A DNA stretch of 41,557 nucleotides from IMG/VR virus record IMGVR_UViG_3300050498_000076, positions 1-41,557 of that record, one strand, 5' to 3'. How positions within the stretch are numbered: the first letter of the stretch is position 1; every line of letters begins with the position of its first letter. Below the pieces are notes generated by a model. That model ran no database searches. It had not been told where the DNA came from and saw only the letters and a list, made by a program, of their open reading frames with translations. Below, in pieces: positions 5,652-27,933 of the stretch. This DNA comes from a virus. The position numbers were made by a program, and so were the translations under genes.

Positions 5652-6623
5652 TTACGCAGATTGCAAGTTGTAAGCCCGACCGATGGCGCGTGGGTGGTTG
5701 ATATAAAGCCCGGCGCTTCCACGGACCACTGTGCGGTAATGGGTGCGGTTCTCCAGCAGGCCGACGTCGTCAGCGAATGGTTCTTCCTGGCACCAGCCAG
5801 CGACGTAGGGCTCCCCGAAGCGCACGACGAACAGGCTGCTCTTGGTGCTGCCGGTGAGTGCCGTTCCGTTGGCGAGTTCCGTGTCCGGCATGATCTGCGT
5901 GGTCTGATCGACCTTGCGCCCGATCTCCACGATTTTTGGGCCACCCTTGCCGTATGTTATGAACTGCCGACCGAGTTGGTCTGTCGTGGTGTCGAGCAGG
6001 TTGGATGATCGCATTGCGGATTGTGCTCGGCGATAGGTTTTCTTCCCCATGAATATGACCTTGTCTGCCGGGTTGCCATCGACCACGTCGAGCGTTTCGT
6101 CGATGACATCAAACAGCTTGTGCTGCCAGCTGGCGACTGCCGTGTCTGGTGAGATATCCAAGGCACCGGCGTCGATGGATTGCTCGGCGAGGAAATCGTT
6201 GATCAGTCGGTAGTGCAGTCCGACCAGACCGTCGACGTCCACTGCCGGTGATCCAAGGAAGAAGCTCTCGTTGAACTTGTACGCCACCCCTTTCATGATG
6301 GCTTCTTCCTGGGCGGCTCGAACGTCCACCAGGCTGTTGGCTTTGACGTACTCGTAGGGCACGTCGATCTTGGCTCCCATGAAGTAGAGTCTTTCCTCCT
6401 GGTCTTCGGGCTCTACCTTCAGATCAGTGAAGGCTGCGCCGACCTTGCGCCAGGGCACTTCCGGGATTTCGTTGAAGCGTTTGATCTTCTCTACGAGTTG
6501 ATCAGACGTTTTGAAGCTGAGGTCTTCCAGGATGGGGCTGGCTTCCCGCCAGGTCCTGATGACTGCAGCTGTGATGGGTGTCGCTGTGCGTTCGTAATCC
6601 GCCAGCGTGAATTCGTTTGCCAT
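5652..6623 (-). CDS. Major capsid protein (323 aa)
   Basis: Track ORF with RBS aaaGGAGcctgcacaATG. It follows a scaffold-like gene, and its size and composition are typical of HK97-fold capsid proteins. Family not verified by search. Confidence 0.72.
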   Translation of the reverse strand: MANEFTLADYERTATPITAAVIRTWREASPILEDLSFKTSDQLVEKIKRFNEIPEVPWRKVGAAFTDLKVEPEDQEERLYFMGAKIDVPYEYVKANSLVDVRAAQEEAIMKGVAYKFNESFFLGSPAVDVDGLVGLHYRLINDFLAEQSIDAGALDISPDTAVASWQHKLFDVIDETLDVVDGNPADKVIFMGKKTYRRAQSAMRSSNLLDTTTDQLGRQFITYGKGGPKIVEIGRKVDQTTQIMPDTELANGTALTGSTKSSLFVVRFGEPYVAGWCQEEPFADDVGLLENRTHYRTVVRGSAGLYINHPRAIGRAYNLQSA

Positions 6624-7528: not shown

Positions 7529-7777
7529 TCAGTCGTCTTCGTCGACGTGCTCATCGCCTTCGATCATTGACATGAAGTCGTCGCTGTATAAGCTGTGTTC
7601 GAACTCCGGGAAGAGTTCCCGGTGCAGCTGGTCCACTTCATGCAGCTGCGCTGCGATCCCTGCCAGTCGTTCAGGTGTGGGTCCGACTGTCATCACTTGA
7701 TACGCACTCCACCATAAAACTTGCAGCTTGGATATCAAGATGGTTGACTTCATTCGGAAGTCCGGTTGGTTTAACAT
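7529..7777 (-). CDS. Hypothetical protein with an acidic C-terminus (82 aa)
   Basis: Track ORF with a strong RBS, aaaaGGAGTAGCtATG. Confidence 0.65.
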   Translation of the reverse strand: MLNQPDFRMKSTILISKLQVLWWSAYQVMTVGPTPERLAGIAAQLHEVDQLHRELFPEFEHSLYSDDFMSMIEGDEHVDEDD

Positions 7778-7937
7778 AGCTACTCCTTTTAGAATTATTT
7801 AAGGTGATTTGCCTCACGTTAAATCCCAGGTATCACGGTGTGCCTTGCCTTCACTGCGTGCAACCTGGGGCTTCCTGTGGGCACGAATTTCGGCCAACAC
7901 CACCGAAAATGGTGATAGCTCCGGAGTTTCACGCATT

Positions 7938-8219: not shown

Positions 8220-8356
8220 TTCTTCATGTGGTTGTCCCGCTCGCCTCTCTCAAAGAACCGTTTGTTGCACCACCAGCAGAACCAGGCCGCCGGTCTGATG
8301 GTTCCACCGATTCCCCTGATGACCTTTCCCTTTCGCACGCTGATGATCCTAACCAT
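8174..8356 (-). CDS. C2HC zinc-finger-like small protein (60 aa)
   Basis: Track ORF with ATG at 8356 preceded by aaaGGAGTAGCcaATG. Contains the pattern CWWCNKRFFERGERDNHMKKC (C-x2-C-x12-H-x4-C). It overlaps its neighbours by 8 and 46 nt. Confidence 0.55.
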   Translation of the reverse strand: MVRIISVRKGKVIRGIGGTIRPAAWFCWWCNKRFFERGERDNHMKKCPRRPPDTNAGATT

Positions 8357-9936: not shown

Positions 9937-12900
9937 TTATTGGATTGGTCCGGCTGCTGCCGGTTGTTGGTAAAGCATCGCCGGTACTACCTGTGCGTCG
10001 AGCCAGGTCTGGAAGTCACCGTATGGTTGTCCTTCCTTGAGCCACACCTGCTGCATGGCGAGGGTGGCGCCTTTGCCTAGCTTCTTGCCGGTCGCTGCGT
10101 AAAGCACCACGAACTGTTCGAGCCCATCCGGCCACGTGCTCGTGTCGACCTGCTTGAATACTTTTCCCTGTAGGATCGGCTTGAGCACTGGGTACTTCTT
10201 ATAATACTCCAGGTCCCTCCACTTCCAGTAAGCGTCCAGCTTGGGGAACTTCAACAGGTAGGCTGCTCGGTCGCTCTTGGCCAGGGAGTAGTATCCCTGC
10301 TCCAGCATATAGTATTCCGGGAACTTCTCCCGGCGCTGCGTGTAAAACGAATCGGTGATCGCCGTGACTGATGGATCGTAAAGGTTCAGGGCTGGCTGCT
10401 GTGCCTGGGGGACGTCGATGATCGGTGCGGTCTGTTCGGTGCGTGGGATCATGGTGCCGAGCATCTGTGCCCACTGGGTTAGCGTTTCCACTGGGATGGA
10501 TTCCATGTCGCGTGTCTCGGTGTCCAGGAAGGATCGTTGGAACTCATCGCCGAGTTGTGCGGTCGCTGCCTTGCGGTTGGTGTCGCCGAGTGCCATGTAT
10601 GCATCCCAAATGTTGCCGATCATAAACGATCGCAGCCGGTCCTGGGGCTCTTTGCCTTTCGCCAGGTATGCTTCGTACTCCGGGTGGTCATCGAAGAATT
10701 GATTGATCGCATCCTTGTCACCGTTGTCGGCTTTCTTCCAGGCTTCGTTCCATTCACCTTTCAAGCCTCGGTACTCCAGCTCTCCTGCCGGTAGCAGCTG
10801 GCTGCCGAAGAGTGATGGCAGGAATGCCTGGGTGCCTGCGATCGCTCCTTCATGTGTGGCTGCGTAGATGGTTCCGGCGAGTGGGGTCTTCATCGCCAGC
10901 TCCATCTTGACCCGTTGTCGGGCCTGTTCGAAGAGTTCACCCTGGCGCTCGATCATGGTGGTCTGTGCCTGGTCGCTGGTGATCAATCCTTCCGCTACCA
11001 TGTTGGCGAGTTGCCGGTCGATGTAGTAATTGCCGTACTCACCGAACTCTGGCAGGTTCAGCTTCTTCCTTGCCCATTGCTCTGGCTTCCCTGCGAGCCC
11101 GATCAGCTGACCGATCGGCTCTGCCCACGTCCCTTGGGTCACGGTTTCGATTGCTCGTGCCGTGTTGGTCAGTGGTAGGTTGGTGACCTTGTTGCGATCT
11201 CCCTTGGAGATGCCTGGCACTTCAATGCCCATCATATTGAGGGGTGTGCTCAGGTACCAGGCTGGTCCGAACATCGTCGCCATAAAGTCAAACGGGTTAC
11301 TGATCTCGGCTTCCCGGCGCTGCGCTGCTTCTGCCGAGGCTCGCTCCCATAGGGCTCCGCTCTGGCTGGCTGCAGCTGCGGCGACCTGGTCCTGTTGAGC
11401 AGATCCGTCCGCTGCCATCTCCTGCAGGATGCGCTCCGTTTCTATCACCTGCATGTTCTTGTCACGGCGCATGGCTTCAATGGGCCGCAGGAAGTTTGCC
11501 GGTGCGAAGAGCATCTGCATTGGATCAATGTATAAGGCGTCGCCCATCCAGTCTGGCATCCAGGGTGCGGCGATCTTGAACTTCCCTCGCAGGCGCTCCG
11601 AGATATCCCGCTCGTGCTTGTCCTGCATGTTCCTGATGCGTGCGTAGTTGGCATACCAGGTCGGCTTGTCGAGCCCTCGCATTGCCCAGGTCAGCAGGCT
11701 CCTGGTGTAATAGAACTCGTAAGGCGCCACCGATTCCAGGTGCCTATCAAACCCATACCGGCGCTGGTAGTTGAGCATGGCGAAGTCTCGCTGGCTCTCA
11801 CCCCATTTGATCGTTGAGTTCTTGACGGCTCCCATGTCGCTCTGGACCTGGCTCACGTAATCTCTCAGCATCTTCTGGCCTGCCGGGCTCACGTCCTTCA
11901 TGGCTCCGTCGAGTGGTCGCTCGGTCTGCAGCTTGTTGATCGCCACATCCTGCATGGCATCGAGCAAGGGTTGGACGTGGTTGCGGTAGCCTTCATCCAT
12001 CCATTCACTGTCTGCTCGGAAGCTGCTGGCGTTGTCCATCGTTCCGAGTGGCGCCTCGCCGACCAGCCTGACGGATGGTGGCATGGTGTCTCGTTGACCT
12101 TTGGGTGGGCGTTGTCCGGTTTCGATCCTGCGCTGCTTGTCTGCATATAGCTGGACGTCTGCAGCTGCCAGGTCTTCGCCGATCCCATAGCTTACGGAGA
12201 AGCCTGTTCGCTTCTTTCCACCGATCTCAAACTCAAGCTCTGCGACCTGGCGATCGATCGCGGCGAGTGCATCCTTGGCAGTTGCTTCGTCCGGGAACCA
12301 ATAGACAAACTCGTCGCCACCTTTACGGAAGGCTCTGCCTCCCACTCGCTCGATCTCAGTCTTGGCTACTCTGCCGATGCCGGTGATGATCTGATCACCA
12401 GCCTCGTGTCCGAAGGTGTTGTTGATCGCCGTCAGTCCATTCAGGTCGCTGGTGGCTTCGAGCCATCCGTCTGGCTTGGAGTCTATGCCGAGTGCGACGA
12501 CGGTTTCCAGTCCGCTGAGTGGGTCGGTCAGGGTCTTGTTGAGTAGCCAGTCACGTGCCTCGGTTCGCTCGGTGGCATCCAGCTTATCCCAAATCTCACG
12601 CAGCCTGGCTGCTGCAGTGTTCCTGCGATCGGCGCTCTGCTGCAGTGCTTCTCTCCCTTCGAATTGATAGAGCGTGCTCTGCTCGCCGGTCGCTTCCCTG
12701 ATCTGTTTCATGAGTTGCCGGAAGCCGGTGGGCGATGCGTCACCTTGCAGGCTCAGGCTGGTGCCGTCCGGTCGGCGGATGTCCACGTGTAGTTGGTGGT
12801 TGACGTCGTTCCCGATCGATCGCCGCAGCAGCCTGGTCTGTGCTTCGGTCAAGGGTCCGCCGATCTGCAGGGATGTCTCTTTGTAGTCAGCGGATAGTCG

Positions 12901-15900
12901 GATCGCCTTTGCTTCGTTGACGAACTTATCAATGGCTGGTGCGTAGACGTCGGTGGTTTCCAGGTCTGCCTGGTCGAACTGGTCCGGCCACAGCTCGGCG
13001 ATCTCTGCGTGGTATCGCATGTCGTCACTGGTCCGGTTGAAGTCCAGCATGCGCCCATCGGCAAGGATGAACCCGGCGTCTTCAAAGACCGGAGTTAATC
13101 CGAAGGCTTTGATCGCCTGGCTCACTGTTTGTGCATTGCCTTGGGTCATCGTGTGCGTGTCGTCGAGCACGTTCAGCTCGATGCTCCTGGGCATCCTGCC
13201 GGTGGTCTTGTATCTATCGAATGCCGGTTCGGTCAAGACGGCGATGGCGTCATATCCCTGTGCCTGGGCTGCCTTCTTCATCTTGGCGTCCAATGCGAAG
13301 CGATCATCGATTGAGTTGATCATGTCGGGCGGCTCGATGCCGAGTGTCTGCATAATCGTGATCTCGTCGCCGACCAGCGGGTTGCTCACGTTCACGTCGA
13401 ACGGTTCGTCGATCGGTCTTCCATAGAACTCCGCCTCTGCGTAGCTCGATGCATAAAAGGTGCCGCGTTCCTGGATGGCTTCGGCGCCTGGCAGTGCGGT
13501 CCGGTACCACTTCCTGTGGTTGATATGATCGATCATCTCCGGCTCTGCTCGTTGGAAGAGTGGTTGCCCTTCCATCACTGACTTCTTCATTGCCGGTGTG
13601 ACGTCGATGCTGTGGACCCGGTTGCCTTCTGAACTATAAAAGTTGACCAGCTTCTTGGTTTGTTCGGTGCCTCGCAGTCCAGGTGTTACGTAGGATGAGT
13701 CCAGGAAGCCACCATCTTCGACGAAGTCCGCTTGCTTCCGCAGCAGGTCGCTCATCACTTCGTCCGGCTCCATCTCTGCTGCCCTGCGTAAGACGTCCGG
13801 TGTCACTAATGCATGGCGTTCCGGTAGGTCGAGCAGCTCCGGGGTCCCCACTGTAGTCTCTCCGACTTGGGCTCCCCATTTCTTTCCGTACTTATCTGCC
13901 CAGGCCGGAAGCATCTTATCGTAAAAGCCCTTCATGCCTTCGCCACCGACTTCCAGGTCGGCGTCTCTCCATTCGTTGGATGTGTCTGGTGACTCTGTGA
14001 TCTTGGTTGCCAGGTCCTTGCCTACGATTTCTTCCACCTGCTCCGGTGTCAACCCTTGCCGGTCGAGCAGTGTCTGATCCTGCTTGATCGCTTCGATGTT
14101 GTATGTGCCGTCCGGCTTTCTCCAGGATGCGATGTAATCCACTTGCTTCGATAGATTGTATCGCTCTGCCTGCTGCTTGCCGGTGGTCCATGCCACTCGC
14201 TCGTATCCTTCTTCGGCTGCCATGCGCAGGATGCGCTTCATCACCAGCTCGTGCCAGGTCTTTTGGAAGGGTGCCTGGCTGATCGGTCCCGTTTCCGGCA
14301 GTGCTTCCATCTTAACTTTCTCAGCATCCCATTGCCGGTAGATTTCCTGAGCCCTTGCCTGGTCGTCGAGGATGTCCTGTGGGTACTGCATGGCTGCATT
14401 GAAGTCTTCGTATGATCCAGCGTTCTCTCGCTTGATCAGGAAGGCTTGCTTCTTATCGGTGCCCTCGTATAAGAGTGTGCCGTCCCTCGCTCTGATCCAC
14501 GTGGTCTTGGCTTCGTCGGTCTTGTTCCACTCCATGATGCGGTACGCGAGGTCCTTCTCTATGTTGAAATAATCCAGACCGAGTTGATCAACTTGCGCCT
14601 TCTGAGCCTGCCGAGCCCGGTCGATCTCCGGGTCCCGGTATCCCTTCTGCCTGCCTGCCTGGTGCCAGTCGCTCTGGATTTCCTCCACCATGAGCACCCG
14701 CTTCCCATCGGCATCGACGCGGTCCGTCAGCCTGGTGTGTGCCAGCACGTTGGGTTCTTCCCAGTGGCTGCTCTTGTATAAGACTTCGCCACCTGGACGC
14801 TCGTTGCGTGCCAGGGATTCCAGTGCCATCGTCCGGGCTTCTGTTTCGGTGTCACCTATTCCGAGCAGCTCTCCGTTGTAGTGCACTCTCCAGTCTTCTG
14901 GTCCATACTGCCTGGGTGCTGCCAGTGCGGGTAGCTCGGTCGGTGCTTTGATTGGTGGGGTCGGCATCGTGTATAAAATCTCCCGGTAGTTCTCTCCGCC
15001 TGGCAGGGTGTAGTTCTGGTACTTTGTAGCACCGCCTGTGCGGTTTCTCGTTGCCTCCTCGACGTGGAAGTTCCAGGTCGTTCCGTAGATTCTGCTCATG
15101 TCATTGGCGTAGCGCCGGGCTCTTTCCGGCATCGATCCTAGTCCGTATACCTTCCCATCCAGGTCTGTGAAGATTTGCCGCATGGGATCGTCTGGATCGG
15201 TGTCGTGTGTGAAGCCCTGTTCTTCCAGGGCTTGCTTATATAGCTGCCACCCACTGTCGGTTTCGAGTTTCTCCCAGGTCCGCTCGGCGATCTCCTGCAT
15301 GTCGATATCGGTGCTGCCCTTGCCCTTCTTTACTTCTTTGATATCGATCCGGTGGGTGTTCAGGACGTCCATCACTTCGGCTTTGGTGATCTTGCCGGTC
15401 CTGGTCTTGAGTAGATCGTCGAGCCCACTCCACTTCATCTCATCGGCTCTGATGCCTGCCTTCTGTAGCACTCCCTTCAGCTGGTCGATGGTCATCACTT
15501 CCTGGCGCCAGGCTGTGATGGTCTGCTCGGCTTTGGTGTACCAGATGTTGCCGATGCCGACTTGCTCCAGCATCTCCGGGGATGGTGGGGTTCCCTGGCG
15601 CAGCTCTGCCAGGTGCATCTCTGTTCGTGCTGCGATCTCGCTGGTCACGTCGATCGGCTTCTTATAGGAAGCTCGTGGGTCTTCGGCGCCGAGCATTCTA
15701 TCAAAGGCTGCCTTGACTTCTGGTGCGATCTTGACGTCGATGGCGCTGCCGGTGATCACCTTATAGATGCCGAGCATCCAGTCCCGCATGGCTTCGAAGG
15801 CTTTGCGCAGCGCCGGTGTGGGTGCCTTGCCTTCTGTGATGTAGCGTTCGAACGCACGTGCGTACTTCTCCTCGGCTGCTCGGTGCCAGACTCCGTCTCT

Positions 15901-18900
15901 GACTCCTGCCCATTGTTCAATCACCTGCAGGTCCGCACGCACCTGCTCGTTCCCCGTTCGTGCGACCACGTCTGTCATCACTCGCCGATAAATGTGGGCG
16001 TTCTCGTGGATCACGGTGCTGACGTCTGCTCGCTCGAACGCCAGGATGGTTGCCTTGATCCCGTCTGGTCCAAACTGGACGGCTCCCTTTGGTGCTGCTC
16101 CCATGTCCTGGAATTGGAACTCATCGATCGCTCGCTGCATACTAGGGATCGCCTTCGATGGTTCGTTGCTCTCGAATACTTTCTTGGCGATCTGTGCGAT
16201 CTTGTTGATGCCGCTCGGTGTTGCCAGGGCTCGGTCACTCACCAGGCTTTCGCCGTTGGCATCCCGGATATCAAACGTGATCATGTCGGATGGGTGGTCC
16301 TTCAGGATTTGCCTGATTACCTTCAGCTGTGCGGCTGTAGGGACCGTGTTGACCAGGTCGATGTTGGTTTCGTCTGGCGATACCCACCAGTGCACCGATC
16401 CTGTTTCGTTGGCGAACTCGTCCCCTCGATAGGCGCCTTCTCCGGGTCCCATTACTTCGGCGATCACGCCATGTTCTTCGAGTGCGATCAGCTTGCCTTC
16501 CGGTGTCAGCCAGAGTGCCGTCAGCGGACTATTTGGATCGTACTCGGTTGCTCCGAAGGTTTCGATTGCTCGCTTCGTCCAGTCGGTGCGCTTCGTCGGC
16601 TTATAAGATGCCCTGGCTTCTTCCAGCCAGGTCTGGTAGTAAGCGTCCGGGTCCCGCTGGAAGAGTAGGTCGATGTTCTGCCTGGCGACGGCTTCTGCCA
16701 TCTTCGGGTCCAGCTTGTAAACTGCATCGATGATCTGGCGCCTGGCGCCGAGGGTGCTCTCTGCCTGCAGTGCGTGACCCACGTGCTTGGCTCCCTGGCG
16801 GACCAGGGCTTGTGCGTAGAAGCTGGTTTCGTCTGACGTCAGGGATCGGTTGATGGGTTGTATCTGGAAGAGTGGTTGCCCTTCCATCACTGCCTGCCGC
16901 ATCTCCGGGGTCACGTCCAGGCTGTGGACCGTTCCCGCCTCTTGTGTTAGTTGCACCGGCTCGACCGTCCCATTGAACCACTCGGCCTTCTTGGCGGCTT
17001 CTCTCCTGGATGTGTAGGTCTGGACTTCCCCTTCCCAATCCACATAGCTCCCGTCGCTCCGTCGCACTCGATAGGCTTCCACTGTTTTGGTCAGCTGCGT
17101 GCCGGAGACTTGGGCTCCCCATTTCTTCGCGTACTTATTGACCCAGGATGGCAGCATCTGATCATAGAAACCCTTCATGCCTTCGCCGCCGACCTTCAGG
17201 TTCTCTCCTTCCCATCGGTGGGTCGCTGCTTGGGAATGATCTGCTGCGACGATCTTCTCCGCCAGGTCTTTGCCGATCGTGTCGGCGAGTTGCTCAGGTG
17301 TAAGCCCTTCCCGGTTCAGCAGGGTTTGTCTGCCCTTGACCGCGTCGATGTTATATGTTCCGTCCGGGTTCATACTTGAATCGATGTGGTCGACTTGCTT
17401 CGCCAGGTTGTATCGATCTGCTTGCTGCTCGCCGGTGGTCCATGCCACCCGGTCGTATCCCTCATCGGCTGCCTTGCGTAGGATGCGCTTCATCACCATC
17501 TCGTGCCAGGTCTTTTGGAAGGGTGCTGGTTCTACTCCGCTGGTGCCCTTCTGCAGTTCATCTAGTCGTGCCTGGGCGACCTGCTCCGCTTGCTCGGATG
17601 CTTGCCTTGCTGCATTGTAGCGAGCCTCCTCATCGGCATCCAGTTCATATCTCCAGGCGAGTTGGCGTCCCTGCTCATCTCGATACTTCTTCTCGAACTC
17701 ACCCATCAAATCCATGTAGGAGTTGTTCTCCGGCAGTTCTTCCCATCCGTTGTTTGCCTGGTCCTGCAGGAAGTTCAGCTCTGCCTGCTCGTCCACGGAT
17801 AGCTCTCGCTTGTATCCCTTCTGCCGACCTGCCTGGTGCCAGTCGCTTTGGATTTCTTCCACCATGAGCACGCGTTTCCCATCGGCATCGACGCGATCCG
17901 TCAGCCTGGTGTGTGCCAGCACGTTGGGTTCATCCCAGTGGCTGGATTGATACTTGGCTGGTGGGTTTGCCCTGTAGTGTTCGAGTGCTGATGCGTGTGC
18001 ATCCATCGGCGTGGGACCGGCGCCGACTACCTGGTCCCCATCCCAGTATTGATAGACCTGCCTGCCGTTGAGCATGGTCTGCTTCATTGTCGTGGTCGCT
18101 GGCAGTGTGTCTGGTCGTTTGCCTGGCATCGTGAAGAGCACTTCCTGGTAGTTGGTGTGGTCGCCTGGCAGGGTGTAGCTGTGGTATTTGGTGGGCGAAT
18201 CACTCTCTCGCCTGCTCTGCGTTTGGTACCGATACTCCCGCTCCAGGGTCATCTCCATCTTGACAGCTGTCCGCTGTATGTCCCCTGGTGGCATCTCGTC
18301 GCTGGTGATGATGTCGCCTTCTGCCTTCGCATCGTGCCATCCGAACTGCAGGCTGCCTTCGTCGTCGACGAACGCATCCAGTTCATACCCTTTCCGACTC
18401 ATGCGTGCCGCCTGGGTTCTCCATCCATGCTGCTCGTTCAGGTTGTCGAATGCCGCATCTATAACCACGTCCGGGTCCGGCTCGTTTCCTCCGCCTTTGA
18501 CGATCTCAGTCATCTCCATGCGGTTGGCGTCGAGCACTTCCTGCACTTCGGCTTTGGTGATCTTGCCGGTGCGCTCTGCCAGGAAGTCATTGAGCCCGGT
18601 CCACTGCATCTCCTCGGCCTTGATGCCTGCCTTCTGCAGCATGCCGCGCAGCTGGTCGACGGTCATTGTCTCTTGTCTGATCGCCGTGATCGCTTGCTCA
18701 GATTTGGTGTACCACACAGGTGCCTCTCCTGTTTGTTTCAGCAGCCCTTCATCGCTGGCTGCTTTGCGGATGTCTTCATAATACCTGGCGTAGAAGTTTG
18801 CCTGGTCTTCGCCGGTGACGTTGGAGTACCAGGTTGCGACGGCATCGCTGATGGTCATGTATGCTTCTGCCTGCTCGACCGGCAGTCCCATCTCCTGGAT

Positions 18901-21900
18901 GATCTTCTCCTTGAGCAGCTGCTTGGTCATGGCTGCGTTGCCTGCTGTGTCCGCCTGCTCTTGTGCGATCTCAGCTCGAGCCTGGGCTTCGGCGATCGTG
19001 CGGTTGCGTTCGTTGGCTTCCACTCGGGCCGCAGCTTCATCGGCGATGTTGCTGATGTGCTCGTTCCACGTGGTGCCATCATGCCTGGTTGCGTTCCCGA
19101 TCTCCGGGGGAAGCTCTCCCATCGTTTCATACATAGTCGCCAGGTCCCCTCGGTCAACCGCGGAGTTCAGTCTCTGCTCCCAGGCTGCCAGCTCGAACGC
19201 ACCGCCGTCGCCGGTGGTAGGATCTGCGGCTTCTTCTGCAGCGACCTTCTCGTAGTGGATGGCTGCGTCCCGCTCGATCGCCGGGTCGTAGTTGTGTCCC
19301 ATCGGGTAGATGTTCTCTCCGCTCCGGGCTCGCTGGATCATGGCTGTCAGCTGTGCCACTCCGCCGAGGTCGGTTGGGTTGTCGAGGTCGATCGGGTATC
19401 CGTCGTCGGCCAGCATCCTTGCCATCTCATCGATGCCGATCCCCTGCCTGGTAAATGCTCCGGGCATCCCACGTGGGTTGGGATCGCCGGTCAAGTCACG
19501 GGCCAGCGCCAGGGAGATTCCGCCGTGATTGCGGACGGCTCTGAGTAGCTTGGTGTTGTTGTCGATCGTGCGGTCGTTGCGTGATCGCCTGCCGGTGCCG
19601 GTGTCGACGGCTCGCTCTGCAGCTGCGGTTGCTTCGATGTCCTTCAGTTCGTTTCGCCTGGTCAGGATGCTGCTGATCCGCTCTGGTGTCAGGCGTGGGT
19701 CATCGAGCCCGGTCAAGTCCGGGATGCCGCCGTATGCTTCCTTCTTCAGGGCTCCTATCAAAGCGAACCGATCCTGCAGCACGTTGCGATCGTAGGGCAA
19801 TCCTACCCGGTTGAACTGCTCGGCTGCATCCCATACTGTGCTGACTCTGGTGGCTCGCTCTGCCTGCTCCTGTGCCTGGCGCTGCTCCGCTTCGGCGATC
19901 AGCTGGTTGCGTTCTTCTTCCAGGGTGGGCACGTCCCTGCGTTGTTCTTCGAGCCTGGTCAAGTTCTCAGCCTGGACGTTCTCCCTTGTGGGCCGGGTGG
20001 TCTGCTGGTACTCGCCTCGCAGCTGGTCGATCATCCCTTCGGCTGATGGTGCGGGTCCTGGTCCTGGCTGCGTGGGTCCACTGGGTAGTGCTGCTGTGCC
20101 GGTGGGTCCGGTGCCGCGTCGAACGATTCGCTCCAGTCGGCGGATGCCTTCCATGTTGATCCGTTCCAGCTCTGCGATCTGTGCGACCTTCTCTTGTCCA
20201 TAGTATTTGTACTTGGCTTGGGCTCTCTGGTCTTTGGTCATCCCCTCGAGAGACTTTCGGAACTTCCGTTCCCTGCTCACGATCTCATCGCTGAATCGGT
20301 TGGCGTCCTTCCACCATTTGCGTGCTGCTTCACCGGCTGCCGGTCCATGCATGTCGGTGTAGATGGTGGTCAGGCTCTCGCCGATGCGAGCGTCGTTGGC
20401 TTTCTTTGCTTCGAAGGCTTGGGAGAACCTGGTGTCGATCTCCTTCTGCAGCTCTGCCCAGGCTTTGTTGCTCTCGATGCTTCCTGCTCGATCGCCGGTG
20501 TACGTCTCGAAGAACGATCGGCGCTGCTCCCGCATGAAGCTGTAGGCGTCGCTCATCACCCGGTCGTTCTCTGCGATCGCAGCCAGCAGTCCACGTGCGG
20601 ACGGGTCGTTGCTCTTTCCCCAGGCTTCGAAGATGCCGAGGTAATTGGCGGCTGTGCGTGCGTTGATCCGCCTGAACTCCTCGCTGCTGATTCGGTAGGC
20701 TTCCTCGATGGCTCTGTTCTTAAGTGCCGTGTCCGGGACGTCTGCCAGGTCCTGGAAGATTTCGCCGAACCTATAGTAATGATCGAGCCAGGCGTCGGTG
20801 TATTTGCTGTTGACCTGCATGACCGTGTCGAGTGCGGCTGGTGCTCCTTCGAGTTCGACCTTGTTGGTCACGTTCTCTGCCATCGCTCGCAGGTCCCTGG
20901 CGGTCTGCATGTCGTTGTAATCCCTGGCGTGTTGGGCTGCCATCTTGAACGCACCACGGACCTGGTCCGGGGTCTGTGCCTTGGTCAGCGCATGATCTAA
21001 CGCGTCCAGCACACCGACCTTCTCCAGGAGTGTGGCTGCCTGGCTGGATGGGATGCCTACCTTCTGTGCGGCTTCGTTGATCAGCGTGCGGCTCATCATT
21101 CCCTGCTGCCTGCCAAAGATGAAGCGATCGATCTCCGGCTTGTTCATTCCGGCTTCTATCAAAGAGTAGATGGTGTTGGGGTTGATCCCTGCCTGCTCCA
21201 CCTGAGTGCGCAGCTGTGGGCTCATCTCCTGGAAGCCTACGCCTCGGCGCCAGGTCTTCGCCCATATATCTTTCATGGCGATCATGGTGCCGTGTTTGCT
21301 TTCGGTGCTCTCGAACCAGCTGCTGACTTTATTGAACGGCATTGCCTTGCCGATGTTGCTGACGATCCTTTGGGCTGCTCCGAGTGGTCCCCGTTGGTCC
21401 CCGCGTATAGCCATATCGATCGCCGATGTCTGGACACTCCCTCGTGTGGGTGCCATGTCCACTGCTCCGCCGATTCCCACTCCTTCTGATAAACGTGCAG
21501 GCTCCACTCCGAAGCGGGTCAGCCAGCTGTCGATCTGGTGTGGTGTCATGTACCCATAGATTCCGGTGGCGGCTCTGTGGACCATGTTGCTCAGTCCGTT
21601 CTGCAGTGCGTAGCCTGGGCTGCCGCCAAGCAGTAACACTGACTGTGCGCTCTTGAGTAGATGGGTCGTGCGGAAGAATGCTTTGCTCTCTGGCGTGTCC
21701 TTCCCTAAGCCTAACCGCTCGGCGGTCCACTCATCGAAGTGTGATCCGAGTGCATCCATCAGGCTGGCTTTCCATTGGTCCGGGTGCCAGTGCAGTGCTC
21801 CGGTGCCGGTGAACGCACCGACGATGTCTTGCAAGTGATCGGCTGTAAATCGACCAGCTTCGATCTCTCGCAGCAGATCCGCTCCGTCTTCACCGGCTGC

Positions 21901-24024
21901 CTGCAGTCGTTGGGTCAGGCGCTGCATGTCCTGGTCGGGTGTGCCTCGCTTCGCCAGGTCTTCTATCAACTTGCCAGGGTCTTCCCCTAGCACGTTTGAT
22001 ATCCGCATGAGCATGTCTCGCTTGGGTGCCGTCAGGTCCCATGCCTGGATCAATCCGTCCAGCTTCTCGATCTTGAAGTCCTTGAGGGCTGGCAGGATGG
22101 TGTACCACTCCGGGGATGCGGCTACCTTCCCGGCCATCTCTGACCAGAGTTTCATGTCGCCGTTGCTGACCGATCGGATCATCTTGCCGATCTCGTGCGG
22201 GTCTGCCATCGATGAGAGCAGCGTTCCGATGTTGTTGTAAAACATCGAGGCGCCTTCTCTTGCTCGGCTCTCTGGTGTGAGTGCTGCCCAGTCTTCCTTC
22301 AGCTTGCTCAAGAGTCCGGTTCGCTTGGCTGGTACGTCGAGCAGTCCGGTGTCGGTAAGTGGTCCGGCTTTGATCTGGTTCTTGCTGTTGATGCCTGCGA
22401 TCCACCGGCTGACGGGTCCCATCTGTTCGTATGAAAAGCCTGGCGCCACGTCGCCGGTCTGGACCAGGGTCTTGTATCTGCGTGCCGCTTCGAAGGGTGC
22501 GTTGGTTTCCATGAACGCACGTGCGGCTGTCTCGTTGCCCATCACCTTGGCGATGGAGAAGTTGATGGTGTTGGTGGCTTCCGGTAGCAGCTCCAGTGGA
22601 TCGATCGCTGCCTGCCCTGCAAAGTCGGCGATCTGTGCTCCGACGTACTGGCTGTGCTCGCCGAGCAGCTGGCGGACTACCACTCGTGGGTCTTCCCCTT
22701 TGATGATCGCATCGTGGATCGTGAGCCTGGCTTCTCTCAATAGCTCCGCGCTGTCGGTGACTCTGTATCGGTTCCCTGTGATCGGATTGATGGCGGTTGC
22801 CGTTGCCCTTTCTACTGGGGCGGCCTGTCCGAGGATGAAGTCTTCTCCTCCTTGTGCGAATTGGATGTTCTCCCGCTTCGCCACTGCCTTGATGTCTTCG
22901 ATCGATCTCACCCCTTGGGTGTCGCTCACTGCCATGATCAGTGCGATCGCTGGTATCCAGTTGCGTGCGCCCAGGAAATCTGACACCTCGTACGTTAGTC
23001 TGCCTGCTTCCCATGTCGCTTTGCGTGTCGCTTCATCCGTCAGCATTCGCTTGGCTGCTTCGGCTGCTTGCTCGTTGCCCTGCATCCCTGCGATCGCTGC
23101 GTCGAGGTATTGTGTTGCAAATCCCGCCGATTGCTCGGCTCCTTCAGACAGCTTATTAAGAACCGCCATCATACCTGCTGCGGTCGTGGGTTGATCAAGC
23201 ACTCCGCCTGTCGGGTCGTACTCTTGTCCGCCGATCAGGCCGAGCCCGTATCCCGCAGCTGCTCCTACTATGCGTCCAGGCACTCCAAAGATTCCACCGG
23301 CGTGCGCTCCTGCGAGTGCCATCGGGGATGCCATGATCTTTGGGTTGCTCATCAACTCGTAGTAGGTCTTCTGCCACTTAGGGACCCGGCTCCAGTTGAA
23401 GTTGGGGTCCTTCAGTATTTGATCTCGTGTCTCTACTGGGTATGCCGTGATATCAAACTGAGGGTTCTGCAGCAGCACCTTTCGTTGCTCGGTGCTCATG
23501 TCATCCCAGGCTGCTTCTCCCTGCTGCACTGCTTTGGGTGGTGCGAACGGTGACGCCTCGCCTGGTGGCTGCGCCTCCGGTGGTCCTTGTAAACTCTCCA
23601 GGTATGCGAGTGCTGGATCATCTCCGGGCAGGTACTTCCAGTCGGTCGGTGGTTTGCCGCCGTTGCGGAAGCTGTGCCAGTTGTATGCCTGCTCGATTGC
23701 CTTCTCTTGTCCCTGCATCCACGTCGGCAGGCTGATGTCCTTGGGCGTCGCTTTCAGGATCGCATATGCGTCGGCGACCTGGCGTGGGTCTTGACCGAAG
23801 TTCGGTGCGTATCCTAGCTGCCGTTCGAGTGCCTTCTTCGGACTGATGTAATTCTTTTGCATGTCCGGGGTCAGGCTGTTGTAATAATTGGCGTAGTGCT
23901 GCTGGTAATACTCGCTCGGCTTGACGTCTGGTGGATTGCGAATGTCGATCGGCACCGGCTTGGGTTGCTGGATCGTCACTGTCTGCTGCGGGATGTTCTT
24001 GGGTGGCTTCTTGATTGGAGGCAT
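9937..24024 (-). CDS. Giant multidomain ('polyvalent'-type) virion/ejection protein candidate (4,695 aa) containing a GGDEF domain, an HExxH motif and an internal module duplication
   Basis: Uninterrupted 14,088-nt track ORF with ATG at 24024. It follows portal and small internal-protein-like genes. Domain evidence is listed under separate features. Confidence 0.9.
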   Translation of the reverse strand: MPPIKKPPKNIPQQTVTIQQPKPVPIDIRNPPDVKPSEYYQQHYANYYNSLTPDMQKNYISPKKALERQLGYAPNFGQDPRQVADAYAILKATPKDISLPTWMQGQEKAIEQAYNWHSFRNGGKPPTDWKYLPGDDPALAYLESLQGPPEAQPPGEASPFAPPKAVQQGEAAWDDMSTEQRKVLLQNPQFDITAYPVETRDQILKDPNFNWSRVPKWQKTYYELMSNPKIMASPMALAGAHAGGIFGVPGRIVGAAAGYGLGLIGGQEYDPTGGVLDQPTTAAGMMAVLNKLSEGAEQSAGFATQYLDAAIAGMQGNEQAAEAAKRMLTDEATRKATWEAGRLTYEVSDFLGARNWIPAIALIMAVSDTQGVRSIEDIKAVAKRENIQFAQGGEDFILGQAAPVERATATAINPITGNRYRVTDSAELLREARLTIHDAIIKGEDPRVVVRQLLGEHSQYVGAQIADFAGQAAIDPLELLPEATNTINFSIAKVMGNETAARAFMETNAPFEAARRYKTLVQTGDVAPGFSYEQMGPVSRWIAGINSKNQIKAGPLTDTGLLDVPAKRTGLLSKLKEDWAALTPESRAREGASMFYNNIGTLLSSMADPHEIGKMIRSVSNGDMKLWSEMAGKVAASPEWYTILPALKDFKIEKLDGLIQAWDLTAPKRDMLMRISNVLGEDPGKLIEDLAKRGTPDQDMQRLTQRLQAAGEDGADLLREIEAGRFTADHLQDIVGAFTGTGALHWHPDQWKASLMDALGSHFDEWTAERLGLGKDTPESKAFFRTTHLLKSAQSVLLLGGSPGYALQNGLSNMVHRAATGIYGYMTPHQIDSWLTRFGVEPARLSEGVGIGGAVDMAPTRGSVQTSAIDMAIRGDQRGPLGAAQRIVSNIGKAMPFNKVSSWFESTESKHGTMIAMKDIWAKTWRRGVGFQEMSPQLRTQVEQAGINPNTIYSLIEAGMNKPEIDRFIFGRQQGMMSRTLINEAAQKVGIPSSQAATLLEKVGVLDALDHALTKAQTPDQVRGAFKMAAQHARDYNDMQTARDLRAMAENVTNKVELEGAPAALDTVMQVNSKYTDAWLDHYYRFGEIFQDLADVPDTALKNRAIEEAYRISSEEFRRINARTAANYLGIFEAWGKSNDPSARGLLAAIAENDRVMSDAYSFMREQRRSFFETYTGDRAGSIESNKAWAELQKEIDTRFSQAFEAKKANDARIGESLTTIYTDMHGPAAGEAARKWWKDANRFSDEIVSRERKFRKSLEGMTKDQRAQAKYKYYGQEKVAQIAELERINMEGIRRLERIVRRGTGPTGTAALPSGPTQPGPGPAPSAEGMIDQLRGEYQQTTRPTRENVQAENLTRLEEQRRDVPTLEEERNQLIAEAEQRQAQEQAERATRVSTVWDAAEQFNRVGLPYDRNVLQDRFALIGALKKEAYGGIPDLTGLDDPRLTPERISSILTRRNELKDIEATAAAERAVDTGTGRRSRNDRTIDNNTKLLRAVRNHGGISLALARDLTGDPNPRGMPGAFTRQGIGIDEMARMLADDGYPIDLDNPTDLGGVAQLTAMIQRARSGENIYPMGHNYDPAIERDAAIHYEKVAAEEAADPTTGDGGAFELAAWEQRLNSAVDRGDLATMYETMGELPPEIGNATRHDGTTWNEHISNIADEAAARVEANERNRTIAEAQARAEIAQEQADTAGNAAMTKQLLKEKIIQEMGLPVEQAEAYMTISDAVATWYSNVTGEDQANFYARYYEDIRKAASDEGLLKQTGEAPVWYTKSEQAITAIRQETMTVDQLRGMLQKAGIKAEEMQWTGLNDFLAERTGKITKAEVQEVLDANRMEMTEIVKGGGNEPDPDVVIDAAFDNLNEQHGWRTQAARMSRKGYELDAFVDDEGSLQFGWHDAKAEGDIITSDEMPPGDIQRTAVKMEMTLEREYRYQTQSRRESDSPTKYHSYTLPGDHTNYQEVLFTMPGKRPDTLPATTTMKQTMLNGRQVYQYWDGDQVVGAGPTPMDAHASALEHYRANPPAKYQSSHWDEPNVLAHTRLTDRVDADGKRVLMVEEIQSDWHQAGRQKGYKRELSVDEQAELNFLQDQANNGWEELPENNSYMDLMGEFEKKYRDEQGRQLAWRYELDADEEARYNAARQASEQAEQVAQARLDELQKGTSGVEPAPFQKTWHEMVMKRILRKAADEGYDRVAWTTGEQQADRYNLAKQVDHIDSSMNPDGTYNIDAVKGRQTLLNREGLTPEQLADTIGKDLAEKIVAADHSQAATHRWEGENLKVGGEGMKGFYDQMLPSWVNKYAKKWGAQVSGTQLTKTVEAYRVRRSDGSYVDWEGEVQTYTSRREAAKKAEWFNGTVEPVQLTQEAGTVHSLDVTPEMRQAVMEGQPLFQIQPINRSLTSDETSFYAQALVRQGAKHVGHALQAESTLGARRQIIDAVYKLDPKMAEAVARQNIDLLFQRDPDAYYQTWLEEARASYKPTKRTDWTKRAIETFGATEYDPNSPLTALWLTPEGKLIALEEHGVIAEVMGPGEGAYRGDEFANETGSVHWWVSPDETNIDLVNTVPTAAQLKVIRQILKDHPSDMITFDIRDANGESLVSDRALATPSGINKIAQIAKKVFESNEPSKAIPSMQRAIDEFQFQDMGAAPKGAVQFGPDGIKATILAFERADVSTVIHENAHIYRRVMTDVVARTGNEQVRADLQVIEQWAGVRDGVWHRAAEEKYARAFERYITEGKAPTPALRKAFEAMRDWMLGIYKVITGSAIDVKIAPEVKAAFDRMLGAEDPRASYKKPIDVTSEIAARTEMHLAELRQGTPPSPEMLEQVGIGNIWYTKAEQTITAWRQEVMTIDQLKGVLQKAGIRADEMKWSGLDDLLKTRTGKITKAEVMDVLNTHRIDIKEVKKGKGSTDIDMQEIAERTWEKLETDSGWQLYKQALEEQGFTHDTDPDDPMRQIFTDLDGKVYGLGSMPERARRYANDMSRIYGTTWNFHVEEATRNRTGGATKYQNYTLPGGENYREILYTMPTPPIKAPTELPALAAPRQYGPEDWRVHYNGELLGIGDTETEARTMALESLARNERPGGEVLYKSSHWEEPNVLAHTRLTDRVDADGKRVLMVEEIQSDWHQAGRQKGYRDPEIDRARQAQKAQVDQLGLDYFNIEKDLAYRIMEWNKTDEAKTTWIRARDGTLLYEGTDKKQAFLIKRENAGSYEDFNAAMQYPQDILDDQARAQEIYRQWDAEKVKMEALPETGPISQAPFQKTWHELVMKRILRMAAEEGYERVAWTTGKQQAERYNLSKQVDYIASWRKPDGTYNIEAIKQDQTLLDRQGLTPEQVEEIVGKDLATKITESPDTSNEWRDADLEVGGEGMKGFYDKMLPAWADKYGKKWGAQVGETTVGTPELLDLPERHALVTPDVLRRAAEMEPDEVMSDLLRKQADFVEDGGFLDSSYVTPGLRGTEQTKKLVNFYSSEGNRVHSIDVTPAMKKSVMEGQPLFQRAEPEMIDHINHRKWYRTALPGAEAIQERGTFYASSYAEAEFYGRPIDEPFDVNVSNPLVGDEITIMQTLGIEPPDMINSIDDRFALDAKMKKAAQAQGYDAIAVLTEPAFDRYKTTGRMPRSIELNVLDDTHTMTQGNAQTVSQAIKAFGLTPVFEDAGFILADGRMLDFNRTSDDMRYHAEIAELWPDQFDQADLETTDVYAPAIDKFVNEAKAIRLSADYKETSLQIGGPLTEAQTRLLRRSIGNDVNHQLHVDIRRPDGTSLSLQGDASPTGFRQLMKQIREATGEQSTLYQFEGREALQQSADRRNTAAARLREIWDKLDATERTEARDWLLNKTLTDPLSGLETVVALGIDSKPDGWLEATSDLNGLTAINNTFGHEAGDQIITGIGRVAKTEIERVGGRAFRKGGDEFVYWFPDEATAKDALAAIDRQVAELEFEIGGKKRTGFSVSYGIGEDLAAADVQLYADKQRRIETGQRPPKGQRDTMPPSVRLVGEAPLGTMDNASSFRADSEWMDEGYRNHVQPLLDAMQDVAINKLQTERPLDGAMKDVSPAGQKMLRDYVSQVQSDMGAVKNSTIKWGESQRDFAMLNYQRRYGFDRHLESVAPYEFYYTRSLLTWAMRGLDKPTWYANYARIRNMQDKHERDISERLRGKFKIAAPWMPDWMGDALYIDPMQMLFAPANFLRPIEAMRRDKNMQVIETERILQEMAADGSAQQDQVAAAAASQSGALWERASAEAAQRREAEISNPFDFMATMFGPAWYLSTPLNMMGIEVPGISKGDRNKVTNLPLTNTARAIETVTQGTWAEPIGQLIGLAGKPEQWARKKLNLPEFGEYGNYYIDRQLANMVAEGLITSDQAQTTMIERQGELFEQARQRVKMELAMKTPLAGTIYAATHEGAIAGTQAFLPSLFGSQLLPAGELEYRGLKGEWNEAWKKADNGDKDAINQFFDDHPEYEAYLAKGKEPQDRLRSFMIGNIWDAYMALGDTNRKAATAQLGDEFQRSFLDTETRDMESIPVETLTQWAQMLGTMIPRTEQTAPIIDVPQAQQPALNLYDPSVTAITDSFYTQRREKFPEYYMLEQGYYSLAKSDRAAYLLKFPKLDAYWKWRDLEYYKKYPVLKPILQGKVFKQVDTSTWPDGLEQFVVLYAATGKKLGKGATLAMQQVWLKEGQPYGDFQTWLDAQVVPAMLYQQPAAAGPIQ
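12125..12525 (-). other. GGDEF (diguanylate-cyclase-type) domain-coding segment of the giant gene (about aa 3834-3967)
   Basis: The translation reads SDLNGLTAINNTFGHEAGDQIITGIGRV...GGRAFRKGGDEFVYWF. GGDEF itself is encoded at 12307..12321. The metal-binding Asp, the N of INN and the D of GD (PleD N335/D344 equivalents, aligned by eye) are present. No RxxD I-site precedes GGDEF. Confidence 0.8.
13555..15560 (-). repeat. Internal module copy A of the giant gene (about aa 2822-3490)
   Basis: Paralogous to 16860..18740. The two share WYTK(S/A)EQ..I.., a 40-aa identical block (EPNVLAHTRLTDRVDADGKRVLMVEEIQSDWHQAGRQKGY), APFQKTWHE.VMKRILR, GGEGMKGFYD.MLP and VMEGQPLFQ. Confidence 0.75.
15994..16008 (-). 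other. HExxH (HENAH) zincin-like motif in the inter-module segment of the giant gene
   Basis: The translation reads STVIHENAHIYRRVM (aa 2673-2677). This is a motif only; the fold is not verified. Confidence 0.35.
16860..18740 (-). repeat. Internal module copy B of the giant gene (about aa 1762-2389)
   Basis: See copy A. The 134-nt stretches 14638..14771 and 17812..17945 differ at about 8 positions by my count. Confidence 0.75.
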
Positions 24025-25163: not shown

Positions 25164-25651
25164 TGTGCGGCTCCTGACTTGAGTGGTGGTATGCGATTCG
25201 ATTCGAGCAGCTGCCTGGTCACTTCTTCTCGCCGAGCCATCAGCTGTGTCATCTCTGTCTGGCTCGCCTGCAGGTTGACGATGATCGTGTTCATCTGGCC
25301 TAGCTGCTCCTTCAGTGTTTCGTTGATCGGCACTCGCTTTGCCAGGTCCCGCATGGTGTCCAGCTGCGTGGTCGCCGACGTGAGTTGTGCGTCCCGCTCC
25401 TTCAGTCGATCCTGCATCTGCTCCACGTGCCGCTGGCATTCGACGTTGGCTCTCTGGAGTGCGACGTTCTCCTGGTAGAGTTCATCGTTCCGGTCTTGCA
25501 GCTTCTTCAGTGAGTCTGTGAACTTAGTGATCGCATCGGCATCGGCTGCTCCGCTCTGTGACTTGGCCAGCCTGCGTGCGTTCAGCCAGCTCATGGCGCC
25601 GCCGATAAATGTGAGCACTCCAATGATTAGGGTTACGGTCGATGGGTCCAT
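25160..25651 (-). CDS. N-terminal TM plus coiled-coil protein (163 aa; internal virion or envelope-acting candidate)
   Basis: Track ORF with a hydrophobic N-terminus (VTLIIGVLTFIGGAMSWL) followed by heptad-like Q/E/L-rich sequence. Confidence 0.68.
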   Translation of the reverse strand: MDPSTVTLIIGVLTFIGGAMSWLNARRLAKSQSGAADADAITKFTDSLKKLQDRNDELYQENVALQRANVECQRHVEQMQDRLKERDAQLTSATTQLDTMRDLAKRVPINETLKEQLGQMNTIIVNLQASQTEMTQLMARREEVTRQLLESNRIPPLKSGAAQ

Positions 25652-26217
25652 TTGCTTATGTTCTCCGTAAAGACCGCGAGCAGCTCCGGGTTGTACTTGT
25701 CGTGGTCCTTGATCAACTGCTCCATTGCTCGCTCGTGGGTGAAGGTCGGGTGGTAGCTGCGGACCTCGGTCAGCGCATCGTATGTGTCGACGATGTGGAC
25801 GATCATGGCGGCGTGTGAGATGTTGCTCTCTCGTGCGTGGTCCGGGTATCCGCTGCCGTTGTAGTTCTCGTGGTGGTGCCGGATGATGTCCAGGATCATG
25901 GCGTCGAGCCTGGCTTCGCTTGCGAGGGTGTATCCAAGCATCGCATGCTGTCTCATAACTACCAGCTCGATCGGCGCCAGCTTGCCGGTCTTGTTAAGGA
26001 TGGCTTCCGGGATCGATGCCTTGCCGAGGTCATGCAGTGCGGCGCCCACGTCCAGCATCTCCAGCTGGTTGCTGTTCATCCCGATCGTGCGGCCAAACTC
26101 GACGGCGATCTGTCGGACCCGATCTCCGTGTTCGTGGCTGTAGGTTTCCCTCTGCCTGCTCAGTTGTCCCATCATGCGGATGATCAGCTCGTGATCGACC
26201 TTGACCTTGCTGTTCAT
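25633..26217 (-). CDS. Stand-alone HD-GYP domain phosphodiesterase (194 aa)
   Basis: All hallmark motifs are present: SHEHGDRV, LHDLGK, PIELVVMRQHAMLGY, HHHENYNGSGYP and IVDTYDALTEVRSY. Its ATG overlaps the portal stop (ATGA). Confidence 0.9.
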   Translation of the reverse strand: MNSKVKVDHELIIRMMGQLSRQRETYSHEHGDRVRQIAVEFGRTIGMNSNQLEMLDVGAALHDLGKASIPEAILNKTGKLAPIELVVMRQHAMLGYTLASEARLDAMILDIIRHHHENYNGSGYPDHARESNISHAAMIVHIVDTYDALTEVRSYHPTFTHERAMEQLIKDHDKYNPELLAVFTENISKWTHRP

Positions 26218-27932: not shown

Positions 27933-27933
27933 A

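Follow-up and report, generated by a model that had tools for sequence, protein, structure and literature searches.

Polyvalent proteins, as described by Iyer et al. 2017 (J Bacteriol, PMC5512222) with an inventory of 9,928 proteins, are giant multi-enzyme polypeptides that are predicted to be packaged and delivered together with the DNA. GGDEF, the palm domain of diguanylate cyclases, is among their rarer cargo domains (Acetonema longum WP_004096050.1 is an example), and interference with cyclic-nucleotide signalling at invasion was proposed. Small stand-alone GGDEF proteins are encoded by Bordetella phage CN1, Bacillus phage SP-15 and Bacillus phage G (gp350) and are represented by phrog_5594. 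A virion-delivered diguanylate cyclase has been a prediction from genome comparison since 2017; in the literature searched we found neither an experimental demonstration of one nor an experiment on a packaged GGDEF enzyme, and no activity data for the stand-alone phage GGDEF proteins. What, then, might be the role of the GGDEF domain that lies within the giant protein of an uncultured phage, IMG/VR record IMGVR_UViG_3300050498_000076? The window analysed here is that record at its full length of 41,557 nucleotides (41.6 kb), and a single minus-strand open reading frame (ORF) of 4,695 amino acids, without interruption, occupies 34% of it. We favour, with moderate confidence, the reading that the domain is a GTP-using, unregulated GGDEF cyclase that likely produces cyclic di-GMP (c-di-GMP), is delivered as polyvalent-protein cargo and acts as a homodimer. 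The concept is already published (Iyer et al. 2017), and the present analysis contributes an apparently new lineage together with a compact GGDEF clade that is now defined.

The domain and the ORF that contains it are as follows.

9937..24024, minus strand: giant polyvalent-type ORF, 4,695 amino acids, from the ORF call and comparison with related loci L001-L006
12055..12636, minus strand: transferable module, amino acids ~3797-3990, with matches in L001/L002, L016 and stand-alone proteins
12127..12525, minus strand: GGDEF (diguanylate-cyclase-type palm) domain, amino acids 3834-3966, from Pfam, AlphaFold2 and Foldseek, the residue map and conservation in the clade
12307-12321, minus strand: GGDEF motif, amino acids 3902-3906

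Amino acids 3834-3966, at 82% of the length of the protein, are confirmed as a genuine GGDEF domain. A first-pass annotation, made from the letters, had placed it at 12125-12525, and mapping of the translation puts that interval at amino acids 3834-3967, from 'DPLSGL' to 'ADKQRR'. The Pfam alignment that it proposed as a check gives a match to PF00990 at E=6.4e-10 (39.5 bits against a gathering score of 23.8), over amino acids 3860-3949 and profile positions 39-130 of 161. When the whole protein is searched against the PDB with phmmer, GGDEF proteins are the sole matches (DgcR 6zxm at 1.3e-7, PleD at 9e-5), and identity to solved GGDEF structures is 24-28%. The AlphaFold2 model of amino acids 3811-3973 has a predicted local distance difference test score (pLDDT) of 85.7 and a predicted template modelling score (pTM) of 0.79. 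In a Foldseek search of the PDB, each of its 50 best matches contains a GGDEF domain and almost every one is named a diguanylate cyclase; they include SiaD (1.4e-11), DgcR (TM-score over the query, TMq, of 0.79), PleD, WspR, DosC and YfiN, with a probability of 1.00 and TMq of 0.6-0.79. An mCpol/Cas10 palm was considered and rejected: mCpol/OptS has a palm without the GGDEF linear motif and is closest to Cas10 (PMC12657218), whereas here the motif is present, PF00990 is the best family and the top 50 fold matches are as described.

Active site residues were mapped by alignment to PleD, using a reference sequence whose numbering is self-consistent and reproduces the published positions, and whose residues 325-418 agree with the alignment printed by HMMER. 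The phage domain shares with PleD, WspR, DgcR and SiaD the palm fold (Foldseek E of 1e-11 to 1e-8), a 'DxLTGL'-type start, the metal-binding Asp (PleD D327, here D3860), the Asn/Asp pair that binds guanine (N335 and D344, here N3868 and D3877), the GG(D/E)EF hairpin (PleD GGEEF, G368-F372, here GGDEF, 3902-3906) and the Lys/Arg phosphate clamp. The clamp residues lie in the last helix ('ADKQRR'), where K442 corresponds to K3963 and R446 to R3965 or R3966, an assignment that needs a two-residue gap. PleD R366 corresponds to R3900, the equivalents of L294 and L347 are Leu and Ile, and the domain opens with 'DPLSGLETVV', as against the canonical DxLTGLxNRR. The RxxD inhibitory site (I-site) is absent: the positions of PleD R359 and D362 are occupied by Glu and Gly ('RVGG' by eye) and the R390 region is also missing. 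This alignment, likewise proposed by the first-pass annotation, bears out its description of an unaltered GGDEF signature, a first metal-binding Asp, Asn and Asp at the specificity positions, which favour GTP use over a Hypr-type enzyme, and no I-site. Hypr GGDEF enzymes, which make cyclic GMP-AMP (cGAMP), have Ser in place of the guanine-binding Asp at the PleD D344 position (PMC6456294), and a Hypr identity was rejected here, the specificity residue being Asp (D3877). Unlike PleD, WspR, DgcR and SiaD, the phage domain is without a sensor or receiver domain and its helix alpha-1 is shorter. With both the I-site and a sensor domain absent, the module would therefore be unregulated, provided that it dimerises.

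The compact form of the domain is not peculiar to the window. Relatives were obtained from IMG/VR (L001/L002), from a metagenome-assembled genome (MAG) of Chloroflexota (L016) and by an exhaustive HMMER search (P0028, P0040, P0042 and P0115), and they have in common the hallmarks DPLSGLET, KPxGW, SDLNxLxxIN, GGRAFRxGGDE, YWFP, SYG and ADxxLYxDKxRR. In an alignment of eight phage sequences, 46-63% identical to the window copy, the equivalents of D327, N335, R366, GGDE, K442 and R446 are invariant. The ratio of nonsynonymous to synonymous substitution rates against L001 is ~0.20 for the domain, and 0.11 and 0.15 for the flanking scaffolds, rough values with synonymous sites near saturation; by this measure the GGDEF module is under purifying selection. 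The deletion that removes the equivalent of PleD R300 is common to the entire clade. At the K332 position, Lys is found in most members, Thr in the window, L001 and L016 alone, and Gly in one copy. At the D344 position, Asp is found in most, Asn in P0115a/b, P0042 and P0306, and Ser in P0311, as in the cGAMP-making Hypr enzymes, so that products may differ between members of the clade. The fifth residue of the GGDEF motif is F, I, V, N or M. This natural variation at K332 (T, G, K) and D344 (D, N, S) constitutes a ready series for the study of catalysis and product specificity. Two further members deserve a remark. In L014 (P0115, a partial protein of 1,233 amino acids), two mini-GGDEF domains lie ~780 amino acids apart in one polypeptide. 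The closest database fragment of the module, P0001 (183 amino acids, on a 779-bp contig), ends '...GRASCRERV', a tail that looks chimeric or artefactual, with the C-terminus unreliable.

The unit that is transferred extends beyond the palm. It comprises an N-terminal helix ('ADRR...LREIWDKLD...DWLLNKT'), the mini-GGDEF palm of ~130 amino acids, and a C-terminal tail ('GQRPPKGQ...PPSV'); the tblastn match in L001/L002 begins at amino acid 3798, and L016 matches amino acids 3794-3994. A profile of the phage copies retrieves, at 100% profile coverage, 15 clusters of stand-alone proteins of 225-299 amino acids (P0298-P0312), which are 52-59% identical across the whole module including the preceding helix, and which have an 'LGQRxERGQ' tail. 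These stand-alone mini-GGDEF proteins have the same deletions as the phage module and no I-site. Unlike it, they are free-standing with an extra N-terminus of ~60-100 amino acids, they possess Lys at K332 and Asp at D336, and their motif is mostly GGDEI or GGDEV. The comparison identifies the phage module as a near-complete host-type small GGDEF protein minus the N-terminal ~60-100 residues.

The surroundings of the stand-alone genes are chromosomal and non-viral, with a HisKA kinase, an OmpR-type regulator, ABC transporters and metabolic genes, and often a DUF4405 membrane protein. Since these cellular relatives are found beside two-component systems, the phage module is best regarded as a host-type signalling enzyme. 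The stand-alone mini-GGDEF gene recurs beside a HisKA/OmpR pair at L034 4663-7267, L035 7246-9844 and L036 7200-10855, and in three of the four loci examined it is followed by the DUF4405 membrane protein and a protein of ~108-110 amino acids; the mini-GGDEF, HisKA/OmpR and DUF4405 genes may form a conserved host signalling cassette. In a neighbour-joining tree the stand-alone proteins form one tight clade that adjoins or lies within the phage copies, and the direction of transfer is not resolved by the tree. Kinship this close to a family of small free-standing GGDEF proteins from bacteria points to an exchange of the module between phages and their hosts. The stand-alone GGDEF proteins of other phages are more distant: they share the viral GGDEF fold (Foldseek against BFVD, 2.6e-10 to 1.4e-9; phrog_5594 at E=1.1e-15), but their genes are small (146-460 amino acids), they are not the cargo of a giant protein, and identity to the window module is 20-29%.

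How is the module carried? Comparison of the 4,695-amino acid protein with L001-L006 reveals a conserved N-terminal scaffold (amino acids 145-1752), a variable cargo region (amino acids ~1753-3990) and a conserved, all-alpha C-terminal scaffold (amino acids 3992-4685).

18769-23592, minus strand: conserved N-terminal scaffold, from comparison with relatives
9970-12051, minus strand: conserved C-terminal scaffold, from comparison with relatives
15994..16008, minus strand: HExxH motif ('VIHENAHIY', amino acids 2673-2677) in a cargo module at amino acids ~2636-2783, conserved in L001-L003 and L016

In L001/L002 and in L016 the HExxH module is followed by an adjoining GGDEF module, L003 has the HExxH module and no GGDEF, and in L005+L006, which are one circular contig, the N-terminal scaffold runs almost straight into the C-terminal scaffold. 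Present or absent on conserved scaffolds, the GGDEF module therefore behaves as cargo. The C-terminal ~700 amino acids define an uncultured family with 537 representatives (50% clustering) at E<=1e-30, mostly of 2,000-5,500 amino acids, and a GGDEF-like domain occurs in 17 of the top 150 representatives, at varying positions in the cargo. In P0028 it is accompanied by an SNF2 helicase and in P0062 by ddrB-ParB. In the window protein GGDEF is the sole family-model domain, beside the HExxH module and a duplicated 630-amino acid module, and in sequence searches of all 4,695 amino acids against Pfam, PHROG, NCBIfam and the PDB it alone receives a recognised domain identity. The HExxH module matches no family model when the whole protein is searched; its motif, and the frequency of zincin peptidases in polyvalent proteins (Iyer et al. 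2017), make it a candidate zincin-like metallopeptidase.

The carrier resembles the polyvalent proteins of Iyer et al. in being a giant, possibly multi-enzyme polypeptide in a terminase-portal setting, in combining GGDEF with a candidate zincin-like module, and in having relatives with SNF2 and DdrB-ParB. It differs in that its lineage consists of uncultured phages of ~40 kb tied to Chloroflexota MAGs, and in that its scaffolds are without a Pfam or PDB match and neither a MuF nor a portal fusion was detected. The giant gene has no Megablast match among 50,697 phage records, tblastn of the N-terminal scaffold against phage records is likewise without a match, and tblastn of the C-terminal scaffold finds five uncultured 'Caudoviricetes sp.' records alone, at 30% identity; judged by these searches, no cultured relative carries the scaffolds.

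The remaining cargo consists of less familiar sequence. The ~630-amino acid module is internally duplicated, at amino acids 1761-2387 (16864-18744, minus strand) and 2818-3491 (13552-15573, minus strand), with 38-49% identity between copies and motifs that include 'SSHWEEPNVLAHTRLTDRVDADGKRVLMVEEIQSDWHQAGRQKGY'; it matches just the uncharacterised phrog_9880 and phrog_7348, the latter filed by PHROGs under lysis as 'endolysin'. Between the second duplicate and the GGDEF module lies a stretch of ~300 amino acids (amino acids ~3492-3796; 13552-12637, minus strand) in which 'YRT...FYASSYAEAEFYG' is by eye faintly like an R-S-E ADP-ribosyltransferase, a likeness with no tool result behind it.

The giant gene is no assembly artefact: the phage is present on eight contigs of 13.6-41.7 kb from several metagenomes, and two ~41-kb contigs from independent assemblies each yield the 4,695-amino acid ORF. 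Around it on the same strand are genes for packaging and head formation.

27934-29352, minus strand: large terminase, PHROG terminase at 7.3e-36
26214-27932, minus strand: probable portal, 572 amino acids, from size and position only
26214..29352, minus strand: packaging-gene block (large terminase and probable portal) upstream of the giant gene
5652..6623, minus strand: major capsid protein gene downstream of the giant gene, phrog_212 major head protein at 6.8e-28

The order of large terminase, a gene of ~570 amino acids (probable portal), genes of 65-69 and ~254 amino acids, and giant gene is kept in L007, L013 and L015, and the longer order of large terminase, probable portal, small genes, giant gene, a scaffold-sized gene and major capsid protein is kept in four relatives. 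Capsid genes of relatives match PF20911 GP7. With the major capsid protein gene downstream, the giant gene therefore lies inside the head-morphogenesis block. With swappable enzymes on conserved scaffolds and a gene between the probable portal and capsid genes, the protein is most plausibly a polyvalent effector carrier. We infer that the protein is a virion or injected protein from its gene position between probable portal and capsid, its modular architecture and the analogy with P1 DarB, T4 Alt and N4 virion RNA polymerase. Like them, it is proposed to be a large head-packaged enzyme that is ejected with the DNA before phage expression; unlike it, they have other activities, bear no sequence relation to it, and their packaging is known from experiment.

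Upstream of the giant gene, the window encodes a second protein with a possible role in cyclic dinucleotide metabolism.

25633..26217, minus strand: stand-alone HD-GYP domain protein, 194 amino acids, Pfam HD_5 at 2.6e-29 (102.6 bits against 27.2)

Located two genes upstream of the giant gene, on the same strand in an operon-like block, this gene overlaps with the probable portal gene at the latter's end. Its PDB matches are PmGH (4mcw, 1.7e-23), followed by the cGAMP-specific V-cGAP3 (5z7c) and the c-di-GMP phosphodiesterase PA4781 (4r8z), and the motifs 'ALHDLGK' and 'HHENYNGSGYP' are both present. It is a candidate phosphodiesterase of c-di-GMP or another cyclic dinucleotide, and with it the phage encodes candidate enzymes for both the synthesis and the degradation of such dinucleotides. 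Since it shares a gene block with the giant gene, the turnover of cyclic dinucleotides may be of importance to the phage, and a functional link with the GGDEF module is possible. An obligate pairing of the two was rejected: the HD-GYP gene was not found in L002, L006, L007, L013 or L015, which have DNA upstream of the giant gene (the L008 contig does not). Together with the gene for a 163-amino acid coiled-coil protein that adjoins it (25160-25651), it is an insertion specific to the window phage among the relatives examined, and IMG/VR holds just one distant relative of the HD-GYP protein.

Where does this phage live? A scan of one genome per species for loci of the family found 17, mostly in Chloroflexota MAGs (Anaerolineales, Anaerolineaceae, Chloroflexia and Dehalococcoidia), and for 5 of the 17 the contig measures 130-326 kb and the locus is probably a prophage. 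From the MAG binning and the contig size of these relatives, the window is probably a phage of Chloroflexota.

A delivered cyclase would work as follows. The giant protein, read as a polyvalent effector carrier with the GGDEF module as interchangeable cargo between its scaffolds, would be packaged in the head and enter the cell together with the DNA. The cyclase would possibly be freed by proteolysis, through the HExxH module and in line with the proposal of Iyer et al., and would then homodimerise. As a compact mini-GGDEF that is working or near-working, it would use GTP and most likely make c-di-GMP, and the rise in c-di-GMP would, at an early stage of infection, reprogramme the physiology of the host or its nucleotide-based signalling.

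A number of observations weigh against this proposal. In the domain itself, the PleD K332 position is Thr (T3865) and the D336 position is Asn; a deletion of 10 residues has removed the 'NRR' segment, including PleD R300, and part of helix alpha-1; a loop of ~12 residues that would link the last strand to the C-terminal helix is missing; and TIGR00254 scores 33.0 bits, below its cut-off of 37.4, a shortfall that is consistent with the two deletions. There is a single GGDEF domain in the chain of 4,695 amino acids, with no evident dimerisation partner. The cargo is also dispensable: the module is absent from L005+L006 and from the available stretches of L003 and L004, although the scaffolds are kept, and in L024, a prophage copy on a 264-kb Chloroflexia contig, the GGDEF module (7281-7835) is disrupted, with 'GLGSDE' for GGDE and an ORF that is interrupted and starts inside the domain. 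As for packaging, no MuF, portal-fusion, DarB-like or other packaging anchor was found in the 4,695 amino acids with Pfam, PHROG, NCBIfam or the PDB, the scaffolds have no sequence match in Pfam or the PDB, and the AlphaFold2 model of the C-terminal 704 amino acids (14-sequence alignment; all-alpha, pLDDT 66.6, pTM 0.45) finds nothing in Foldseek better than E=1.3. A downstream target is also lacking within the phage, in which no Rfam family finds a match, so that there is no c-di-GMP riboswitch, and, among the 41 ORFs scanned with Pfam, no PilZ or similar c-di-GMP receptor domain. Nor is there an HD-GYP gene near the GGDEF-bearing giant genes of L002, L007, L013 and L015.

The departures from PleD show that the description of the domain as apparently catalytically intact, given in the first-pass annotation, stands for the metal, guanine and phosphate residues and the GGDEF motif, but not for K332 or for the cross-dimer Arg; as judged from the alignment, a largely intact, compact variant is the better term. 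Could the domain instead be crippled, and be a GTP-binding or regulatory element, or a slow GTP-to-GMP hydrolase, that for example couples a neighbouring module or ejection to the level of GTP in the cell? The K332 side chain is a proposed transition-state stabiliser (PMC12943098), and PleD R300 (IsPadC R537), which 94% of predicted cyclases have kept, makes a stacking contact with the guanine of the other subunit (PMC6456294). The loss of both in the sub-branch to which the window belongs, with Asn at D336, no obvious partner for dimerisation and a TIGR00254 score below cut-off, is what such a domain would display, and hydrolysis of GTP to GMP is within the reach of GGDEF domains that are isolated or do not dimerise (PMC7825114). 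We nevertheless consider a crippled domain unlikely. Across copies at 46-63% identity, purifying selection has kept every ligand of metal, base and phosphate and the general-base Glu, which would be needless for mere binding; the loss of the cross-dimer Arg is clade-wide and includes cellular proteins encoded beside two-component systems, which makes it a trait rather than decay; and the K332 contact with phosphate runs via the backbone (PMC7288161). Each catalytic event takes two domains, with which the two copies in the chain of P0115 would be in keeping, and the tandem could provide a built-in partner for the dimer-dependent reaction.

An active cyclase need not be delivered by the virion. 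It could act in the cell that produces it, late in infection or in a prophage, and for example keep infected or lysogenic filaments sessile and matrix-producing, with the HD-GYP protein setting the level of the product. The probable prophages among the relatives on large Chloroflexota contigs, the serine recombinase gene in which L008 ends, the HD-GYP gene in the same gene block and the undetected packaging anchor are all compatible with such a role. It is distinctly unlikely, however, in view of the position of the gene within the head-morphogenesis block, from probable portal to capsid, in every relative. Conserved termini with swappable SNF2, ParB and peptidase cargo are typical of delivered polyvalent proteins, and a 14-kb gene would be a costly means of expressing an enzyme of 190 amino acids.

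A variant of the delivered cyclase would make use of both candidate enzymes: the mini-GGDEF module would write a pulse of c-di-GMP or a related dinucleotide at entry and the HD-GYP protein would later erase it, or else clear host immune dinucleotides. Such a pair is a long shot.

An arms race with host defence, in which the cyclic nucleotide floods, mimics or competes with messengers of the CBASS, type III CRISPR or Panoptes type and the HD-GYP partner would degrade host signals such as 3'3'-cGAMP, has in its favour the interference with host nucleotide signalling proposed in 2017 by Iyer et al., the variable D344 position in the clade, the presence of V-cGAP3 among the HD-GYP relatives and the finding in Panoptes that a constitutively made dinucleotide can restrain a toxic effector, but is highly improbable given that the Asn and Asp of the window copy are canonical and predict c-di-GMP, that the domain is a true GGDEF and not an mCpol or Cas10 palm, and that its closest cellular homologues are encoded beside ordinary two-component systems rather than defence effectors.

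Two other genes of the window encode DNA methyltransferases: a Dam-like D12-class enzyme (8349-9062, minus strand), whose gene lies directly downstream of the giant gene and also occurs in L001/L002, and a member of the N6_N4_Mtase family (29892-31316, minus strand), encoded upstream of the terminase region. A 118-amino acid protein with an LtfC-like beta-sandwich domain at 1.2e-7 (933-1289, minus strand) adjoins a conserved protein of 883 amino acids (1744-4395, minus strand), and the relatives carry an SU10-adaptor-like gene; together these suggest a podovirus-type tail module. A 207-amino acid protein (33721-34344, minus strand) has a short Rmf/CrpP-fold segment at amino acids 71-111, for which Pfam RMF gives 33.1 bits and so exceeds its gathering score; as a clue to the host this match was rejected, every NCBIfam Rmf/CrpP model being below cut-off. 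No tRNA genes were found in the phage.

The host is uncultured, and the phage genetics suggested in the first-pass annotation are therefore currently infeasible. A module of ~190 amino acids with clear boundaries and cellular homologues makes the prediction of a delivered cyclase directly testable in vitro. The carrier fills a third of ~40-kb genomes linked to Chloroflexota and may be a general chassis for effector delivery. If the cyclase is active and delivered, the sessile/motile or developmental signalling of the host would be rewritten within seconds, with no feedback brake, and if delivered synthesis were indeed followed by later removal by the HD-GYP protein, the phage would exert timed control of second-messenger signalling or nucleotide-based immunity in filamentous Chloroflexota.

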